From Thermotogota bacterium (lineage in GTDB: Bacteria; Thermotogota; Thermotogae; Petrotogales; Kosmotogaceae), in NCBI GenBank assembly GCA_034660555.1, contig JAYEJL010000107.1, positions 1-11,208 of the forward strand: a stretch of DNA of 11,208 bases, read 5' to 3'. This document shows, piece after piece, positions 1,242 to 8,604 of this stretch. The position numbers and the translations under genes were made by a program. The notes under the pieces are model-generated. The model saw only the letters and a list, made by a program, of their open reading frames with translations, did not search any database and was not told the DNA's origin. Each line of letters opens with the position of its first letter. Positions within the stretch are counted from its first letter, which is position 1.

Positions 1242-1844
1242 ATGGTGAAGAAATGTACTATCTGTGGGCAGGAAATAGATAAAAAGAATTCTGTTAAGAT
1301 AAGAGGCGAATGGTACTGTCTTGAATGTGCTGCAAAGCTGAAGGAACTTGAAGAAAAGTCAGTCAGTAAAAAAAGTTATGGCAAAGCCCCTGAAGTCCTT
1401 GCTTTGAATGTCGAAAATCCGGGCATACCTGTAGTAAGATATTTTCAAATGGTTACAACGACGGGAATAATTCATCTGGGAGCCTGCGATAATTACAGAA
1501 ATGATCCTGATGAAAACATCGATGAAATAGTGGCTTCAGCAATGGAAGGTGTCTATTACAAATTACTCGATGATCTCAAAGATAAATCATATCAAATTGG
1601 CGCAAATAGCATTCTTGGCATCAAAGTTAGCACTGCATCATTCAGTACAGTTGAAGAAGAATTAGGTTTGATTGTTACTTTATCCGGGACACCAGCGCTT
1701 ACTGCAAGAAAAAAAGAAAAATCTACAGAAAAAAGCGGGGACGCTTCTCAAGAAAAGGACATAGCTACTCAAAATGATGAATTTGAGTTTCCAGTCGACT
1801 TTTTTGATGAAAAATTCGAGCAAATAGATAATGATAGTAGCTAA
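1242..1844 (+). CDS. N-terminal Zn-finger (CTIC...CLEC) fused to a YbjQ/UPF0145-like domain, with an acidic C-terminal tail
   Basis: Two CxxC pairs at the N-terminus. LLDDLKDKSYQIGANSILGIKV...VTLSGTP resembles the YbjQ GANAxxGV...GTA signature. SD GAGGTG lies upstream, 21 nt after the degV stop. Confidence 0.68.
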   Translation: MVKKCTICGQEIDKKNSVKIRGEWYCLECAAKLKELEEKSVSKKSYGKAPEVLALNVENPGIPVVRYFQMVTTTGIIHLGACDNYRNDPDENIDEIVASAMEGVYYKLLDDLKDKSYQIGANSILGIKVSTASFSTVEEELGLIVTLSGTPALTARKKEKSTEKSGDASQEKDIATQNDEFEFPVDFFDEKFEQIDNDSS

Positions 1845-2581
1845 ACTGCTTCACTTACTGAATTCAAAAAGCCTTTGATTTCAACAGAATTAGAGTTAAA
1901 AAAGGAAACAGGATCAGTATCTTCAATTATTTCCCCATTCTCCATGAAAATTATTCTGTTGGCGGTATTTTCAGCAAATCGTATTTCATGTGTAACAACA
2001 ATCATTGTTTTTCCCAGTAATGAGAGCTTTCTCATCACGTTCATCACTTCTCCCACAAGAGAAGGATCCAGCGCTGATGTTGGTTCATCAAAAAGTAATA
2101 GATCGGGTTCCATGACAAGGGCTCTGGCAATGCCTACTCTTTGTTGTTGTCCGCCAGAAAGTTGAGAGGGATAGTTCAAAGTCTTATCAGCAAGCTCAAC
2201 ATCAATCAAAGCTTTTTCAGCTTGTTTTCTAGCCTGACGCCAGTTCATATTTTTAACTTTAACGAGGGGAAGTGCAACATTATCTATTGCACTGAGATGA
2301 CTTATAAGATTGAAATTTTGAAAGACAAAACCAATCTTTGACCTTACTGATCGTATTATTTGTCTATTATTTATAACCTTGGTATCATTAAAATAAATCT
2401 CTCCAGAATTTGGCTCAATAAGATAGTTTATCGTTCTTAGAAGAGTAGTCTTTCCAGCACCAGATCTACCGAGTATTACAAGCACATCTCCCCTATTAAC
2501 TTTAAAACTAACATTTCTTAATACACAGGTGCTTCCAAATGATTTACATATGTTATTCATTAAAAGGACTGTATCTTTCAT
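1841..2581 (-). CDS. Polar amino-acid ABC transporter ATP-binding protein (GlnQ-like)
   Basis: Walker A GRSGAGKT, Q-loop VFQNFNL, signature LSGGQQQR, Walker B LLLFDEPTSALDP and H-loop VTHE. ATG overlaps the permease stop codon. Confidence 0.95.
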   Translation of the reverse strand: MKDTVLLMNNICKSFGSTCVLRNVSFKVNRGDVLVILGRSGAGKTTLLRTINYLIEPNSGEIYFNDTKVINNRQIIRSVRSKIGFVFQNFNLISHLSAIDNVALPLVKVKNMNWRQARKQAEKALIDVELADKTLNYPSQLSGGQQQRVGIARALVMEPDLLLFDEPTSALDPSLVGEVMNVMRKLSLLGKTMIVVTHEIRFAENTANRIIFMENGEIIEDTDPVSFFNSNSVEIKGFLNSVSEAV

Positions 2582-3312
2582 AGAATTGCTAGCCTCCTTT
2601 CTAACTTTCTACCAATATAGGACAAAATCGATGTCATTGCTAGATATATTCCAGCCAGGATTAAATATGCTTCAAGACTGGCAAGGGTTTGTGTACCCAC
2701 CTGTCTTGCTCTCATTGTTAAATCTCCCAAAGCAATTACTGAAACAAGTGAACTATCTTTTATTAATGAACACACCTGTCCTATTAACGGTGGAATGGAT
2801 ATCCTGAATGCCTGTGGAAAAACAATAGATAGAGTTACCTGATATGAGTAAAGGCCCATGGCTTCTCCGGCTTCAATCTCACCTTTTGGAACTGCTTCAA
2901 TACCAGCTCTAAAAATTTCTCCTATATACGCTCCTTCAAAAAACGCGAGTGAAAAAACACCAGCCCAGAATCTGTCAATTGAAAACACAGATCCCAGACC
3001 GTAGTATATGAGTAGAATAATTACAAGCAGTGGCATATTTCTAAAAAACCACACATAAATAGTTCCGAGGTCCTGAAAGACCTGAATCTTCGATGTTCTT
3101 AAAAGAGCAATAACTACTCCCGTTAATAACGCAAAACCAAGAGAAACAGCTGTTAATTTACCAGTCATTTCAAGTCCCATTAGAAAAAGCCTATAATATC
3201 TAGCTGTTACATCCCAGTTAAAGGGATATACCCTTGACATCGAAAAATATACTATTGCAATACAGCCAGACAAAACAATTATGATTAAAGACCTCGAAAG
3301 AAGTTTTTTCAT
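2578..3312 (-). CDS. Polar amino-acid ABC transporter permease (HisM/GlnP-like)
   Basis: FRNMPLLV, GAYIGEIFRAGIEAVPKGEIEAGEAMG (EAA loop), PQAFR and LIKDSSLVSVI. ATG 3312 (MKKLLSR) is preferred to the track start at 3381, which overlaps the SBP gene. Confidence 0.93.
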   Translation of the reverse strand: MKKLLSRSLIIIVLSGCIAIVYFSMSRVYPFNWDVTARYYRLFLMGLEMTGKLTAVSLGFALLTGVVIALLRTSKIQVFQDLGTIYVWFFRNMPLLVIILLIYYGLGSVFSIDRFWAGVFSLAFFEGAYIGEIFRAGIEAVPKGEIEAGEAMGLYSYQVTLSIVFPQAFRISIPPLIGQVCSLIKDSSLVSVIALGDLTMRARQVGTQTLASLEAYLILAGIYLAMTSILSYIGRKLERRLAIL

Positions 3313-3331
3313 ATTTACCCAATCTTTAAAA

Positions 3332-4105
3332 TTACATCTGGGGTTCGTATTCAACGAACCACTCGTATTCCAGTTCGTCAATTATTCCGGATGTATCCAT
3401 CCAGTTAATAAATGTGTTTATCCACCATAAAAATTCCAGATCCCCTTTTCTAACTGCTACGCCAAGATCTTCTTCGGTAAGGAATTCATTACTTACATCA
3501 AGTACTTCATATTTTTTGGCTACATATCTGGCATAAAGAGAATCGACCACAAGTATGTCAGCTCTATTAGAAGCAACCTGGAATGCAGCTTCATCCATTG
3601 AATCGAAGGGAAGTATTTCTGCGCCTTCAAACAGTCTGCGAGCAGCTTCGTCCCCTGTCGTTCCTAACTGGACAGCGATAGTTAAGTCATCATTTTTAAG
3701 TTCATTGTATTTGGGTAGTTCCTGATAATTATTTGTGCTGTATACCATCACCTGTCCCACAGTTAGATAAGCATCACTGAAGTTAACTTTTAAAGCTCTT
3801 TCCGGAGTAATTGTCATTCCTGACCAGATAATATCGAACTTCTCAGTCATCAATGCGGGTATAATCCCGTCCCAGTTGACAACTACAAACTCAAGTCTTA
3901 CTCCCAGAATGTCTGCCATACGTTGAAGGATTTCAACTTCTAGTCCTATGCGGTTCCCTTCCATATCAGTACCGTATAAAGGCATATAACCTGAATCCTG
4001 TCCAACTCTCAATACTCCTCTTTTTCTGATGTCATCCAGCAAGCTTCCAAAAGCAAAACCCGCTACCAATAAAACAATTACTGCAAAAACCATCATTTTT
4101 CTCAC
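3332..4105 (-). CDS. Polar amino-acid ABC transporter substrate-binding protein (SBP family 3)
   Basis: Signal peptide MRKMMVFAVIVLLVAGFAFG; motifs IRKRGVLRVG, WDGIIPAL, SGMTITPER, VNFSDAY and QLGTTG. SD GGAGGT lies 7 nt before GTG 4105. Confidence 0.94.
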   Translation of the reverse strand: MRKMMVFAVIVLLVAGFAFGSLLDDIRKRGVLRVGQDSGYMPLYGTDMEGNRIGLEVEILQRMADILGVRLEFVVVNWDGIIPALMTEKFDIIWSGMTITPERALKVNFSDAYLTVGQVMVYSTNNYQELPKYNELKNDDLTIAVQLGTTGDEAARRLFEGAEILPFDSMDEAAFQVASNRADILVVDSLYARYVAKKYEVLDVSNEFLTEEDLGVAVRKGDLEFLWWINTFINWMDTSGIIDELEYEWFVEYEPQM

Positions 4106-4131
4106 AACGAACACCTCCAGAATTTTGATAT

Positions 4132-4430: not shown

Positions 4431-5771
4431 TTACTCATCATTAACCGTTGGTACCGCACCTGTACCCAGATAAATATCATGAATCATCCTACTATCAGCA
4501 CAGGGTTCGAGCGGGTTAAAGTACAGATAGTTAAAGTCTTCCCAATAAATCATTTCAAAAGCTACTGGTAAAGCATTTCTAGCAACCTCTGGATTGCTAA
4601 TTCCAATAAGTAACTCGTCAAGATAAACTTTATAAGGTATATCCCAGCCATCCATTACATCAAATTCAATGTAAAGATTTTCCAGTCCGGAATCCTGGGC
4701 AATGTCAAGAATTTCCGTTGTTGGTGTAAATTCTACCCCTCCTCCTTCCACAGGGCAAACATCAACCTGTTCAGCTATTTCAGTTGCTTCACTACCATGA
4801 CCCGGGGACATGAACAAGAAAACTTCGTTACTGTTCATTTGGGAACTTATTGAAGCAAGCGCTGCTTTGAGATCTTCCTTTGTACCTCCTACAACTGAGA
4901 TAACATCAAATCCAAGAGGAGTCGAAGTAAGTGTAGTCTTCCATTTTTCAATATCGCCTTTATGCCTTTGTTCGTCTGATCCTGAGAATAACAAAGCGTG
5001 TTTAGAACTGGCATCATCTGTAAGTCGCATGTTTTGATCTCCATTGTATAATCCCTGAGGATGTTCTGTTCCTGGAGGATTATCTCTATCACCATGAGGA
5101 CCTCTGCGGTCATTCATATGGGCGTCATGATCTGCTTTGGCAATAGTATCACCAGATTCGAATTCCTTTCTCAACTCTTCAAGCCAGTAATCATAACCAA
5201 GACCATCATTACCCCAACTAGTTTCGTTCCATCCTGCAGCTGATTTTAAAAGGGTGTCATCAAAATCTTTAAGATCTTTGAACATACCTCCACCAAAACA
5301 CTGTCCAAAGGCAAATATCATTTGTTTATAACCCTTATCAACAATATTATCCTTAATTAGTTTTGCAAACTCATGAGATCTAATGGAAGTATCTGATGCT
5401 GAAAGGGCAGCTTTCATATTTTCCGGTGGTTCAACATATTCTGGAGTTGGGACAGCTGTTTCAAAGTTAATTTCGACCGGGTTACCTTTCATGATTGAAC
5501 CTTCACCATCAGAATCGGTGTTAAGTGGGGTAAATTTCAGCAAATATTCAGAACCCGGTTCAAGGTCAGGAATCTCAAATGTTGAAGTACTTGTTATGGT
5601 CTCAAAAACAGTAGAGTCTTTTGTAATAACCACTTCCATAGCAAAATTGTCAGCCTTCCATGCTGTTGTTGGGGAAACATCAACTGTTACAGTTGGTGTT
5701 TCATATGGGGAATTTTCCTGCCAGTCACAAGGCCATTCTGGAATGGGAATAAGTTTTTGAATACTATCCAT
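4431..5771 (-). CDS. C-terminal fragment: FN3-like domain plus caspase/legumain-like cysteine peptidase domain
   Basis: FEIPDLEPGSEYLLKFTPLN is FN3-like. MIFAFGQCFGGG is the Cys motif and FLFMSPGHG is the His motif. No SD is evident before ATG 5771. Confidence 0.72.
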   Translation of the reverse strand: MDSIQKLIPIPEWPCDWQENSPYETPTVTVDVSPTTAWKADNFAMEVVITKDSTVFETITSTSTFEIPDLEPGSEYLLKFTPLNTDSDGEGSIMKGNPVEINFETAVPTPEYVEPPENMKAALSASDTSIRSHEFAKLIKDNIVDKGYKQMIFAFGQCFGGGMFKDLKDFDDTLLKSAAGWNETSWGNDGLGYDYWLEELRKEFESGDTIAKADHDAHMNDRRGPHGDRDNPPGTEHPQGLYNGDQNMRLTDDASSKHALLFSGSDEQRHKGDIEKWKTTLTSTPLGFDVISVVGGTKEDLKAALASISSQMNSNEVFLFMSPGHGSEATEIAEQVDVCPVEGGGVEFTPTTEILDIAQDSGLENLYIEFDVMDGWDIPYKVYLDELLIGISNPEVARNALPVAFEMIYWEDFNYLYFNPLEPCADSRMIHDIYLGTGAVPTVNDE

Positions 5772-5795
5772 TCTTTAAAGACAACATCGATGGCA

Positions 5796-7070
5796 TTACA
5801 GTTTCCAATCACTGATATTACATCTAGACCTGTATGACAAATAACAAGTACATGCACAAGAATATGTGAGCTCTCCGTTCTGATCAGTTGTTAATTCATC
5901 AGGACCTCTGGTGTGAAGTCCTGTTACAGTCACTTCAATTGATTTGCCTTCTGCGGGTTTTCCATCTGCTTTGGTTACTACGCCCTTTACTGTATGTACT
6001 CCAGGGGATATATTAATATCATATATAGGTGTTATGGTTATGCTATAGTCGCAGTCACATTCGATTTCAGCGTCCGACATTATCTTATCAATGTGTTCTG
6101 GTAGTGCGGAAACATTTCCCCATGTTTGAGCCATAATGCTTTGAGGATCTTCATCCTGCTCATAGTCGTTCACATAATTTCCATCTTCGTCATAGTGATA
6201 TTCATCATCAAGTCCCATAAAATGTCCAAGTTCATGTGCAACTACAGCTCCACTGTCGAGGCTATCGAATTCACCGGTTGTTGTATCGGTAGAACCAGGT
6301 GTTGGTAATGGAGTATTTACAAATGAAGTATGCGCTGCATTTACCTTTTTTATTTCAACTATGTGTGCATCTTCCGGAAAATTGCCATCAGTAACTATCT
6401 CAAATACAAAATCAAATTCAACCGTGCAGCAGTCTTCTTCATCTCCTTCTCCACCCCATTCACGAGAACCTTCATCACCATTCCAGATTTCTTCTGCTTC
6501 GGTTTCCCAGGAATCAATTTGTGTTTGCGTTGCTCCATTACCATGAAAAGCAATCTTTACGGTTACTTTGTACTCACAGGGACCTCCTGTAACTGAGGTT
6601 ATTAGCGGGAAATATTTATCTGGAGCATATTCATCTGGAAAGTAAGTGTGTAAAATCTGAAGTGCAAATTCTCCTAATTCTTTCGGTGGAACACTGAACA
6701 TCATTATTTCATTGGAACCAAGTAAGTTTACCAGCGGCGCTTTACCTTTATTATCACCATTTTTTAGAAGCGCAGTTGCTATCAGAGCTTTTATTGCATT
6801 GTTCGTATCGGTTAAATAGGTTTCAAGTTCATCTAATACAGTTGCAGGTAATGTTACCCTTTGGAAAGAGTAGGCTGCAGGCCAGCGCTCTAATGGAGTA
6901 CCATTTTCCAGCATGTCAAGTAGTTTATTTGTTTTATCATCTACTAAAGGAATAATTTCATCAATATATTTTATGGTCATTGGTATATCTAAGTCAACTT
7001 TATCAAGTATCTCATCGATTTCATCTTCTGCTACCTTAAAGTGTACTTTTACTGTTTTGTAATTATCCAT
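5796..7070 (-). CDS. Middle fragment of the disrupted lipoprotein: Zn metallopeptidase (metzincin) domain with Ig-like domain
   Basis: HELGHFMGLDD (HExxHxxGxxD, 6204-6236) followed by a SIM Met-turn. The C-terminal HTVKGVVTKADGKPAEGKSIEVTVTG...TTDQNGELTYS is Big_1-like. Confidence 0.8.
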   Translation of the reverse strand: MDNYKTVKVHFKVAEDEIDEILDKVDLDIPMTIKYIDEIIPLVDDKTNKLLDMLENGTPLERWPAAYSFQRVTLPATVLDELETYLTDTNNAIKALIATALLKNGDNKGKAPLVNLLGSNEIMMFSVPPKELGEFALQILHTYFPDEYAPDKYFPLITSVTGGPCEYKVTVKIAFHGNGATQTQIDSWETEAEEIWNGDEGSREWGGEGDEEDCCTVEFDFVFEIVTDGNFPEDAHIVEIKKVNAAHTSFVNTPLPTPGSTDTTTGEFDSLDSGAVVAHELGHFMGLDDEYHYDEDGNYVNDYEQDEDPQSIMAQTWGNVSALPEHIDKIMSDAEIECDCDYSITITPIYDINISPGVHTVKGVVTKADGKPAEGKSIEVTVTGLHTRGPDELTTDQNGELTYSCACTCYLSYRSRCNISDWKL

Positions 7071-7642
7071 ATAAACGGTTGCAGTAACGACATTTGAATA
7101 AGTAACATCACCAACCCAGTAACCAAATTTGTAGCCAATATCCGGATGTGCTGTTATTTATACCTCTGTATCTGCCTTAAATTCATTAACTCCTTTAGGT
7201 GGATTGGTAGTGACTTCAGCTTCAGAAATTTCCATAGTCAGCTCATACATTTTTAAAGTAAAATTACAGGATAAAATGATTAGTAAAAAGAACATGATGA
7301 TTAAAGAAAAGGAAAAAAATCTTGAATTTTTTCACATTACTCACCTCCCTTATCACATAGATCCAACAGAATTAACGTAATGAGTATGTTTCTTAAACAT
7401 GACTATTAGTTATAAAAACGGTGTTTATTTAATATTGAAGGAAAAAAGATGGAAATTTTTCGGGGTGTAATTAATGAAATGAATCATTATTATAAAAATT
7501 GTAACGTGCATAGAAAATGAAGTATTTTTTGAGGCTTAATATAAAACACCAGTTAGCAGCGTTCTTTAAATAAGCAAAGACTGTATTAGAAAAGAGTATA
7601 ATTCTTTTGTAGTAAAAAAATAAAGGTATTGGGGGAATCAAA

Positions 7643-8088
7643 ATGTGGAAGGACTTCAAGAAATTTATTATGAGAGGGAACATCATTGAAATCGCCATAG
7701 CATTTATTCTTGGGAGTGCATTTGGTCAAATTGTATCATCGCTTGTTCGGGACATAATAATGCCGCCAATAGGACTACTGCTAGGTAGGGTAAGTTTTTC
7801 AAATCTATTTATTTAACTGGTGAGAAGTTTAATACTTTAGCTGAGGCTCAGGCAGCCGGAGCACCAACCATTAATTACGGTGTTTTTATTAACACAGTCG
7901 TAAGTTTCATGATAATAGCATTTGTTATTTTTATTATAGTCAGACAGATGACAAAGCTACTTGAAAAACCAAAGGAAGAACAGCCCAAACCGCCATCAAC
8001 AAAAACATGTCCGTATTGTTATACAAGTATTCCGATACAGGCGACAAGATGTCCTAACTGCACATCAAAATTGGAGGAAAAAGTTTAG
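7643..8088 (+). pseudogene. mscL: Large-conductance mechanosensitive channel with C-terminal Zn ribbon, frameshifted
   Basis: Not in the ORF track. ATG 7643 gives [44 protein letters not shown]...NLFI* (TAA 7814-7816). The -1 frame continues [44 protein letters not shown]...TKTCPYCYTSIPIQATRCPNCTSKLEEKV* (TAG 8086-8088). Confidence 0.93.
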
Positions 8089-8097
8089 AAATTATTT

Positions 8098-8604
8098 ATG
8101 GGTTTATTGGATTCACGATTTAAAGGTAACAAGAAAAAGTATATTATTCAAATACTGCTGGCAACATTATTGGTATTAATCGTTCTTTTGCTCTTAGATA
8201 CCGTTTCTGATGTTGTTGTGATAGCATCCTTTGGTGCCAGCTCTTTCATTGTGTTTTCAGTTCCCAATTCTTCCGCGGCAGGTGTAAGATTTGTACTCGG
8301 AGGTAATATTACGGGTATACTATCAGCCTTCCTGGTAAATCTTATAGGCGTTTTAGTTGTGAATTCCGGGGTAGTTGCAGCAACCAATGAATACTATCAA
8401 ACTGTTCTGGGTGCTATATCAGTTGGTCTTGCAATGTTTTTGATGGTAATATTTAATACAGAACATCCTCCTGCTGCAGGTCTTGCTCTGGGAATTTGTC
8501 TTGAAGGTTTTGATTACCTTACTGCTTTGATAACAATAACGGGAATAATTATTCTATTGCTATTTAAACGAATTTTCAAAAAATATCTCATTAATCTGCT
8601 ATGA
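8098..8604 (+). CDS. HPP family membrane protein
   Basis: Several hydrophobic helices; ASFGASSFIVFSVPNS, VLGGN and the EHPPAAG signature. Confidence 0.9.
   Translation: MGLLDSRFKGNKKKYIIQILLATLLVLIVLLLLDTVSDVVVIASFGASSFIVFSVPNSSAAGVRFVLGGNITGILSAFLVNLIGVLVVNSGVVAATNEYYQTVLGAISVGLAMFLMVIFNTEHPPAAGLALGICLEGFDYLTALITITGIIILLLFKRIFKKYLINLL

Follow-up and report, generated by a model that had tools for sequence, protein, structure and literature searches.

A probable natural circular permutation of a legumain-like clan CD peptidase domain encoded in a disrupted lipoprotein gene of Thermotogota

Introduction

Clan CD proteases include the caspases, legumain, separase and gingipain, and the order of their catalytic residues, as MEROPS describes it, is histidine followed by cysteine. 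In legumain the cysteine lies roughly 40 residues after the histidine. Here, we consider an open reading frame (ORF) from a Thermotogota bacterium, P0001, which does not follow this order: Cys158 comes before His325. The ORF is located on the reverse strand of an 11 208-nucleotide stretch of DNA (GenBank assembly GCA_034660555.1, contig JAYEJL010000107.1, positions 1–11 208), which we refer to as the window. Our analysis makes it very probable that residues ~119–328 of P0001 constitute a natural circularly permuted clan CD peptidase domain of the C13-like type, that this domain belongs to an unnamed family of exported bacterial proteins and that the copy in the window is itself probably a pseudogene.

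The domain resembles legumain, the asparaginyl endopeptidases (AEPs), the peptide ligases and PIGK (MEROPS family C13; Pfam PF01650) in its fold and in its Cys half, which scores above the PF01650 cut-off. With the legumain-type enzymes it shares His-Gly and x-Cys-x-Gly-Gly motifs placed behind hydrophobic strands and an Arg-His pair that can be aligned with that of ligase 7f5j. In contrast to legumain, members of the family carry the cysteine 152–247 residues before the histidine and have no legumain-type C-terminal prodomain, a jelly-roll domain following directly after the histidine. Unlike the legumain-type C13 enzymes, P0001 has a His half for which C14 profiles are a closer match than those of C13.

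Two rearranged types of clan CD enzyme provide points of comparison. Engineered circularly permuted caspase-2 (cpCasp2; PDB entries 8vp4 and 9c2y) has its canonical C-terminus joined to its canonical N-terminus, as does the domain described here, and it gave the best VIA-align superposition and the top Foldseek rows. As a single, unprocessed chain the engineered enzyme is reported to show activity (PMC7760212). In contrast to the family, cpCasp2 is a man-made C14 enzyme whose chain opens after the cysteine, in the linker between the subunits; within its large subunit the histidine still precedes the cysteine. In the type III metacaspases of phytoplankton (C14B) the p10 region is N-terminal to p20, an arrangement that the authors discuss as a circular permutation (PMC3734836). 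These are eukaryotic C14 enzymes in which p20 (His then Cys) is intact, whereas the break in our family falls inside the p20 equivalent; P0001 is broken between His and Cys and does not show a p10 placed before an intact p20.

The initial annotation of the window proposed the permutation but knew of no characterized permuted clan CD example. On the evidence of these two papers, permutation as such was already on record in the type III metacaspases and the permuted caspases; what stands as new is the opening between His and Cys. A full-text literature search on circular permutation in clan CD enzymes, caspases and legumain returned no natural case of Cys before His, with MEROPS and the caspase-hemoglobinase fold's 2002 classification lying outside the search. 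The arrangement of the family is probably, although not certainly, undescribed. We regard it as a permutation of a new kind, opened between His and Cys, and not as the first in clan CD.

Order of the catalytic halves

Two Pfam profiles match P0001, each over part of its length. Positions 129–190 of the 258 in Peptidase_C13 align with residues 127–188 (E = 1.1e-6, 28.9 bits, cut-off 22.8). The gathering cut-off of PF01650 is passed, yet by the Cys half only, and P0001 gives no full-length collinear match to this profile. The His-half piece, searched alone, aligns at about residues 266–342 with positions 16–100 of the 233 in Peptidase_C14 (E = 3.8e-4, 20.6 bits, cut-off 21.4). The back of the domain is therefore matched first and the front second, which places the halves in swapped order.

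The same reversal is seen against individual structures. We constructed a family profile from a MAFFT alignment of 68 members, which share about 25–30% identity with P0001. Metacaspase-4 (6w8s) aligns with this profile in two pieces, profile positions 198–280 corresponding to chain residues 22–94 and positions 45–96 to chain residues 110–155; for ligase 7f5j, positions 186–231 correspond to chain residues 7–51 and positions 45–120 to chain residues 132–210. The best C13 matches of the profile in the PDB are the peptide asparaginyl ligases 7f5j, 7f5q and 6idv (E = 3e-6 to 6e-6). A PDB search with P0001 as a single sequence gave matches at chance level only (E of at least 0.15). NCBIfam holds no model for the catalytic domain, and P0001, P0004 and P0014 gave no matches there.

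Both catalytic residues terminate hydrophobic strands, in the sequence and in the full-length model: MIFAFGQC (strand 150–156) leads to Cys158 and FLFMSPGHG (strand 316–323) to His325. The EHPQ motif occupies residues 236–239. The codon positions given for both residues in the initial annotation, and position 5003 for Lys257 at the start of KHALLFSG, are exact (Table 1), and its expectation that the two halves would each match clan CD profiles in swapped order is borne out by the C13 and C14 matches and by the reversed pieces of 6w8s and 7f5j.

The family of permuted relatives

An exhaustive library search identified 98 proteins at E ≤ 1e-3, 26 of them at E ≤ 1e-10; a word-indexed search identified one relative only, P0002 (87% identity). 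The family profile was run over all 100 proteins P0001–P0100. In 90 of these the cysteine precedes the histidine within one collinear match; they comprise the 68 sequences of the profile and 22 of the 32 others, which had no part in building it. Three of the remaining ten display the canonical order, six are short fragments and one (P0075) is unmatched. Cys and His are both retained in 89 of the 90 permuted proteins, at a median spacing of 196.5 residues. Only four columns of the 68-sequence alignment are invariant, namely Cys158, Gly161, His325 and Gly326. In a motif scan, nearly all of the 100 proteins carried Q/E-C-F/Y-G-G close to the N-terminus and, some 200 residues further on, a hydrophobic strand with D/G-H-G. 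The swapped order and the retention of both catalytic residues, as first proposed for P0001, are thus properties of the family.

The three proteins in canonical order, P0083, P0091 and P0098, are the principal control: against the profile each splits into two significant matches whose order is swapped. In P0091, for example, profile positions 177–279 correspond to residues 16–138 and positions 39–173 to residues 148–275, both with E of about 1.5e-12. In these canonical-order relatives the histidine lies about 59 residues before the cysteine, as in ordinary C13 enzymes. They share signatures with the permuted family: QCFSG, DD-GP-G followed by EHPG and, in P0098, a PEP-CTERM tail. They are likely to represent an unpermuted sister group. 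Alignment of the family with P0098 using hhalign reported a collinear match of the Cys half and nothing further.

P0029 (1692 residues) contains three complete units in tandem, each consisting of a permuted C13 domain plus jelly-roll. Circular permutations usually arise by duplication and subsequent truncation, and P0029 may be a relic or a model of that route. The tail of the same protein carries a lipo-invert-like domain (NF058595, 24.5 bits, cut-off 37).

Ten cluster representatives of the family are unnamed or called 'hypothetical protein', one of them being labelled Candidatus Dadabacteria. The neighbours of the family in the protein atlas are C13 clusters.

Predicted fold

AlphaFold2, supplied with the 68-row alignment, modelled the whole ORF with a mean predicted local distance difference test score (pLDDT) of 88.6 and a predicted template-modelling score (pTM) of 0.85. 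Residues 105–340 modelled alone form one compact domain (pLDDT 94.5, pTM 0.92). The elements of the model run helix, strand (Cys), helix, strand, two helices, short strand (PQ), strand (ALLFSG), helix, strand, helix, strand (His), which is the canonical clan CD order, rotated.

The domain model was compared with 48 161 PDB representatives using VIA-align. The ten best rows are all clan CD chains, with Z scores from 12.7 to 6.4. The first is engineered cp-caspase-2 (8vp4_A; Z = 12.7, root-mean-square deviation 2.6 Å over 154 residues), which covers model residues 65–225, from behind the cysteine through the join to the histidine. The second is human legumain (4aw9_A; Z = 8.2, root-mean-square deviation 3.0 Å over 125 residues), for which model residues 15–186, including the cysteine, correspond to chain residues 150–288. 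Later rows include OaAEP1, metacaspases 4 and 9, MALT1, a CHAT protease, PIGK and caspases 8, 3 and 9; among the C13-type chains, 5h0i_B has Z = 7.7 and PIGK (7w72_K) Z = 6.7. Residue 150 of the legumain chain directly follows what we take to be the catalytic His148-Gly149. Since the legumain match begins at this residue, the domain has its new N-terminus immediately after the place that His-Gly occupies in the canonical fold, and its last element is its own His-Gly. The clan CD domain that had been predicted from the letters alone is therefore recovered, as one compact unit, in the model, and so is the manner of its permutation: the alignment with legumain from chain residue 150 places the opening between His and Cys, and cp-caspase-2 runs collinearly across the joined termini. 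Each of the two superpositions places one catalytic strand canonically, from which we infer that Cys158 and His325 would lie side by side in the model.

In the full model the domain is flanked by residues 24–107, which resemble fibronectin type III (fn3) domains, and by residues 327–438, which VIA-align matched with jelly-roll modules, among them the N-domain of PNGase F, the N-domains of glycosidases, carbohydrate-binding modules CBM35/36 and the P domain of furin. The jelly-roll is within the conserved core of the family, since profile matches extend to about position 390–425 of 435. It starts immediately behind His-Gly and is thereby tethered at the edge of the active site.

The disrupted lipoprotein gene

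P0001 is not a gene of its own. It is the tail of a fused lipoprotein gene, with which the homologue P0003 is collinear over positions 7304–4434; P0003 (61% identity) matches P0001 through its residues 524–966. In the intact lipoprotein a lipobox signal peptide is followed, in order, by an InlB-B-repeat-like domain, a helical region, an HExxH zincin, an Ig-like domain, fn3, the permuted C13 domain and the jelly-roll. Each of the four other genomes of the genus encodes the protein in one open frame of 968–1011 residues, whereas the window copy has three in-frame TAA codons.

The gene was compared with the congener loci L003, L004 and L005, of which L004 has 86% nucleotide identity to the window, and with contigs of a second sample (X2). 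It carries four lesions (Table 1). The 80-base stretch between lesions 3 and 4 is out of frame, which gives rise to the TAA codons at 5796–5798 (the stop of ORF 5796–7070) and 5775–5777. We considered whether stop read-through might join ORF 5796–7070 and ORF 4431–5771, which share a frame, and rejected this: two TAA codons lie between them and the intervening stretch is out of frame with respect to P0002, P0003 and L004. All four lesions, one of them a nonsense codon and the others frameshifts, lie upstream of the domain. The window copy is therefore probably a pseudogene of recent origin or, at best, a fragment devoid of a signal peptide. P0001 is 83–87% identical in protein sequence to its intact orthologues, and none of the other genes of the contig looks broken. 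The initial annotation had described the catalytic segment as free of lesions. This holds for positions 4788–5417, which contain no stops and no frameshifts and are identical in contigs of two samples, but not for the gene to which they belong, which is broken upstream.

The HExxH zincin (window positions 5796–7335, reverse strand; residues 1–523 of P0003) scores under every Pfam and NCBIfam cut-off. The metalloprotease part of P0003 gives a weak match to an M6 domain, 27.5 bits against a cut-off of 110.8. It may represent an unclassified metallopeptidase family.

Table 1. Positions in the window of the features discussed in the text
Feature	Position	Strand	Details
ORF P0001	4431–5771	−	446 residues; starts at an internal ATG; no signal peptide
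fn3-like domain, residues 24–107	5451–5702	−	VIA-align matches to fibronectin type III, Z = 7.4–8.6; weak Pfam fn3 match, E = 0.022
Cys half, residues 119–245	5037–5417	−	Canonical helix 3, strand 4 and remainder, to EHPQ; Pfam Peptidase_C13 positions 129–190; legumain 4aw9_A chain residues 150–288 from model residue 15 (residue 119)
Cys158 codon, predicted nucleophile, FGQCFGGG	5298–5300	−	Present in 68/68 sequences; Cys and His both in 89/90 permuted proteins
Join, residues 240–256, GLYNGDQNMRLTDDASS, canonical C-terminus to canonical N-terminus	5004–5054	−	Short strands and coil between strands 239–242 and 256–263 in the model; cp-caspase-2 8vp4 collinear across the join
His half, residues 257–328	4788–5003	−	Canonical strand 1 (KHALLFSG), helix 1, strand 2, helix 2, strand 3 to GHG; Pfam Peptidase_C14 positions 16–100; PDB matches to N-terminal parts of metacaspases and ligase 7f5j
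His325 codon, predicted general base, SPGHGS	4797–4799	−	Present in 68/68 sequences, as is Gly326
Arg269-His270 codons after strand 1, candidate S1-pocket residues	4962–4967	−	Aligned with Arg-His of plant ligase 7f5j ('krhwnd' with 'YRHQAD'); Arg in 47/68, His in 45/68
Jelly-roll, carbohydrate-binding-module-like β-sandwich, residues 327–438	4458–4793	−	Begins directly behind His-Gly; VIA-align Z = 7.5–8.9
Whole disrupted gene, homologue of a lipoprotein of ~955–966 residues	4431–7335	−	tblastn with P0003 (966 residues) collinear over 7304–4434, 58% identity; GTG start at 7333–7335 homologous to that of congeners
ORF of 424 residues: helical region, HExxH zincin part (VVAHELGHFMGLDDEYHY), start of Ig-like domain	5796–7070	−	Sub-threshold Pfam matches: Peptidase_M64 (20.4 bits, cut-off 26), Reprolysin-like, Big_1
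Lesion 1: run of seven T in the signal-peptide region, one base extra; frame shifted after GTG	7313–7319	−	Alignment with L003 and L005, three-frame translation; covered in one sequencing run only, possibly that from which the DNA came
Lesion 2: in-frame TAA, CAA or CAC in congeners	7158–7160	−	Second sample identical (X2 record 6, 6602–7295)
Lesions 3 and 4: extra base near 5847 (ambiguous, ~5841–5860); base missing between 5767 and 5766	5766–5847	−	Nucleotide alignment with L004, frames of P0002 and P0003; X2 record 5, 5599–6449, without gaps
Amino-acid ATP-binding cassette (ABC) transporter downstream: solute-binding protein 3332–4114, permease 2578–3381, ATPase 1841–2581	1841–4114	−	Pfam SBP_bac_3 (family 3 solute-binding), E = 1.9e-32; permease and ATPase read from translations

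Export, distribution and genomic neighbourhood

Signal peptides are visible in sequences of family members, which outside this lineage are exported stand-alone proteins, several with PEP-CTERM tails. PEP-CTERM matches were obtained for P0015 (17.8 bits, cut-off 16) and P0098 (25.8 bits); the NCBIfam scan found no such motif in P0001. The Kosmotogaceae-type proteins have a lipoprotein signal in place of PEP-CTERM.

Four close relatives are found in metagenome-assembled genomes titled Kosmotogaceae, Petrotogales or Thermotogaceae. We surveyed 151 genomes of the phylum and obtained full-length matches to the family profile in eight, the window genome included, all of them in the family to which the window belongs. 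By genus these are five of five genomes in g1 (counting that of the window), two of three in g2 and one of ten in g5; another four matches are weak and incomplete. The metalloprotease–fn3 part also occurs in several g5 genomes without the C13 module, in open frames of 623–663 residues, which points to the C13 module as an add-on.

Downstream of the protease gene are the genes of an amino-acid ABC transporter (Table 1). Four congener genomes were available, and in all three of those whose loci extend far enough (six loci) the binding protein and permease likewise lie behind the protease gene. The fusion of a zincin with a C13 domain next to an amino-acid transporter suggests protein foraging.

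The rest of the window is more varied. A forward-strand gene at 1242–1844 encodes a protein of 200 residues. Its N-terminus has a CxxC...CxxC zinc ribbon; a weak YbjQ-like region and then an acidic tail follow, and none of its Pfam matches reaches the cut-off. Between the start of the protease gene and the gene of an HPP-family membrane protein (8098–8604) are about 700 AT-rich bases (7400–8097; GC content about 0.32) with no notable ORF. Beyond these, 8684–10 729 on the forward strand encodes a membrane-anchored PAS-GAF-GGDEF diguanylate cyclase (GGDEF, E = 1.3e-38). Convergent with it, and overlapping its 3′ end by 17 bases, is a reverse-strand ORF (10 713–11 066) that contains the motif HHERLNGSGYP, which we take to be HD-GYP-like; the two may be a maker of cyclic di-GMP beside a breaker. 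The contig begins within a gene on the reverse strand (3–227), the N-terminal CGFGCKYC motif of which resembles the CxxxCxxC cluster site of radical-SAM enzymes.

Proposed mechanism

In the arrangement that we propose, the chain of the domain would open just behind the canonical His-Gly position and continue with helix 3, with strand 4 bearing the nucleophile and with the rest of the canonical C-terminal part as far as EHPQ. A join of about 17 residues would then lead into canonical strand 1, and strand 3 with His325-Gly326 would close the domain. The strands that carry Cys and His would be neighbours as in legumain, so that each end of the domain would contribute one residue of the dyad, with Cys158 as the putative nucleophile and His325 as the putative general base on adjacent strands of one sheet, 167 residues apart and in reversed order. 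The fn3 domain would enter, and the jelly-roll exit, at the edge of the active site.

Members of the family are most likely to be extracellular cysteine endopeptidases. The retained Arg-His pair behind strand 1 makes a legumain-like preference at P1 possible; conservation of Arg269-His270 in the alignment hints at a pocket of the Asn/Asp type. By analogy with engineered cp-caspase-2, a permuted legumain-type domain that lacks a prodomain may dispense with activation cleavage, and the jelly-roll is a possible gate of the active site.

Evidence against the proposal and alternative explanations

Several observations weigh against our interpretation. The Peptidase_C14 score of the His half is just under the gathering cut-off (20.6 against 21.4 bits). 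Foldseek found no match to the domain model at E ≤ 0.001, the best being cp-caspase-2 (E = 7e-3, probability 0.99, template-modelling score 0.45) followed by legumains, and the full model gave only multi-domain matches of low template-modelling score (0.13–0.19) in the PDB. The adjacency of Cys158 and His325 depends on two partial superpositions that share a core (model residues 65–186), together with the strand order known for the sheet of this fold. Two positions before the cysteine, where legumain presumably has its S1 glutamate, P0001 has Gly156 and most of the family Gln or Gly, so the S1 pocket would not be fully legumain-like. One of the 90 permuted proteins, P0062, has Ser and Leu at the dyad positions. 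Peptidase activity of the family is a prediction from conservation in sequence. With regard to the window itself, the copy lies in a broken gene and has no signal peptide; X2 is a second sample of the same study, and its confirmation of the lesions is not fully independent.

These points lend themselves to other explanations, two of which accept the permuted fold and differ on its function. Instead of hydrolysing its substrates, the domain might catalyse transpeptidation or ligation, in the manner of the plant peptide asparaginyl ligases or of the GPI transamidase subunit, both of which are C13 proteins. The top C13 matches of the profile in the PDB are indeed ligases (7f5j, 7f5q and 6idv) and PIGK superposes with Z = 6.7; such matches, however, merely reflect membership of C13, and fusion to a zincin beside an amino-acid transporter is in better accord with degradation, so we consider ligase activity improbable. 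It is very unlikely that the domain is a pseudo-protease, that is, a non-catalytic binding module in which Cys and His are structural or bind metal. P0062, which lacks both residues, and the loss of the S1 glutamate of legumain would fit such a role, but the invariant columns among 68 diverse sequences of about 25–30% identity consist solely of Cys, His and the glycines that flank them, both catalytic residues survive in 89 of 90 permuted proteins and both end hydrophobic strands as they do in active clan CD enzymes.

The two remaining alternatives concern the locus. Were the permutation only apparent, P0001 would be a remnant of two tandem canonical domains or an artefact of assembly or frameshifting in the contig. 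Tandem arrays do exist (P0029), duplication and truncation commonly lead to permutation, and this very gene has frameshifts elsewhere. Nevertheless, each unit of P0029 is itself permuted and complete, the halves form one compact model (pLDDT 94.5), the same order occurs in the intact orthologues of all four congeners as well as in 90 of the 100 proteins, and positions 4788–5417 agree between the contigs of two samples. The flanks, being fn3 and jelly-roll, contain no leftover clan CD half, and on this count the idea of two tandem normal domains, which the initial annotation had itself put forward as a possible refutation, fails. We regard this explanation as largely refuted and extremely unlikely. 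There is also little probability that the window copy is alive, with ORFs 5796–7070 and 4431–5771 made as separate proteins and the peptidase working inside the cell. Both frames are long and open with an ATG start, and the C13 part keeps all of its motifs at 83–87% identity to intact orthologues; set against this are four lesions in 2.9 kb where the other genes of the contig have none, the lack of a signal peptide on either fragment of what is elsewhere a lipoprotein, and an Ig-like domain that is cut and read out of frame. A circularly permuted peptidase domain, presumably active in the family and probably carried by a pseudogene in the window, remains by far the preferred interpretation.

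Conclusions

The existence of a sizeable natural family with reversed catalytic order means that the clan CD fold tolerates opening within its catalytic core. The permutation also explains how members of the family are labelled in databases, as half-length C13 matches or as hypothetical proteins, and searches that expect a collinear profile match will go on under-calling them.

Legumain-type enzymes are sought as peptide ligases and as proteases for tag removal, and the same practical aim lay behind engineered cp-caspase-2. The family described here is a natural, single-chain legumain-type scaffold without a prodomain. We propose, tentatively and with rather less than even confidence, that it is the first natural clan CD peptidase family to be opened between His and Cys, with a dyad drawn from the two ends of the domain and neighbouring domains tethered at the rim of the active site, and that it would merit a MEROPS family or subfamily of its own. 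If the analogy with the engineered caspase holds, its members may be prodomain-free, constitutively competent enzymes in which the jelly-roll would govern access to the active site.

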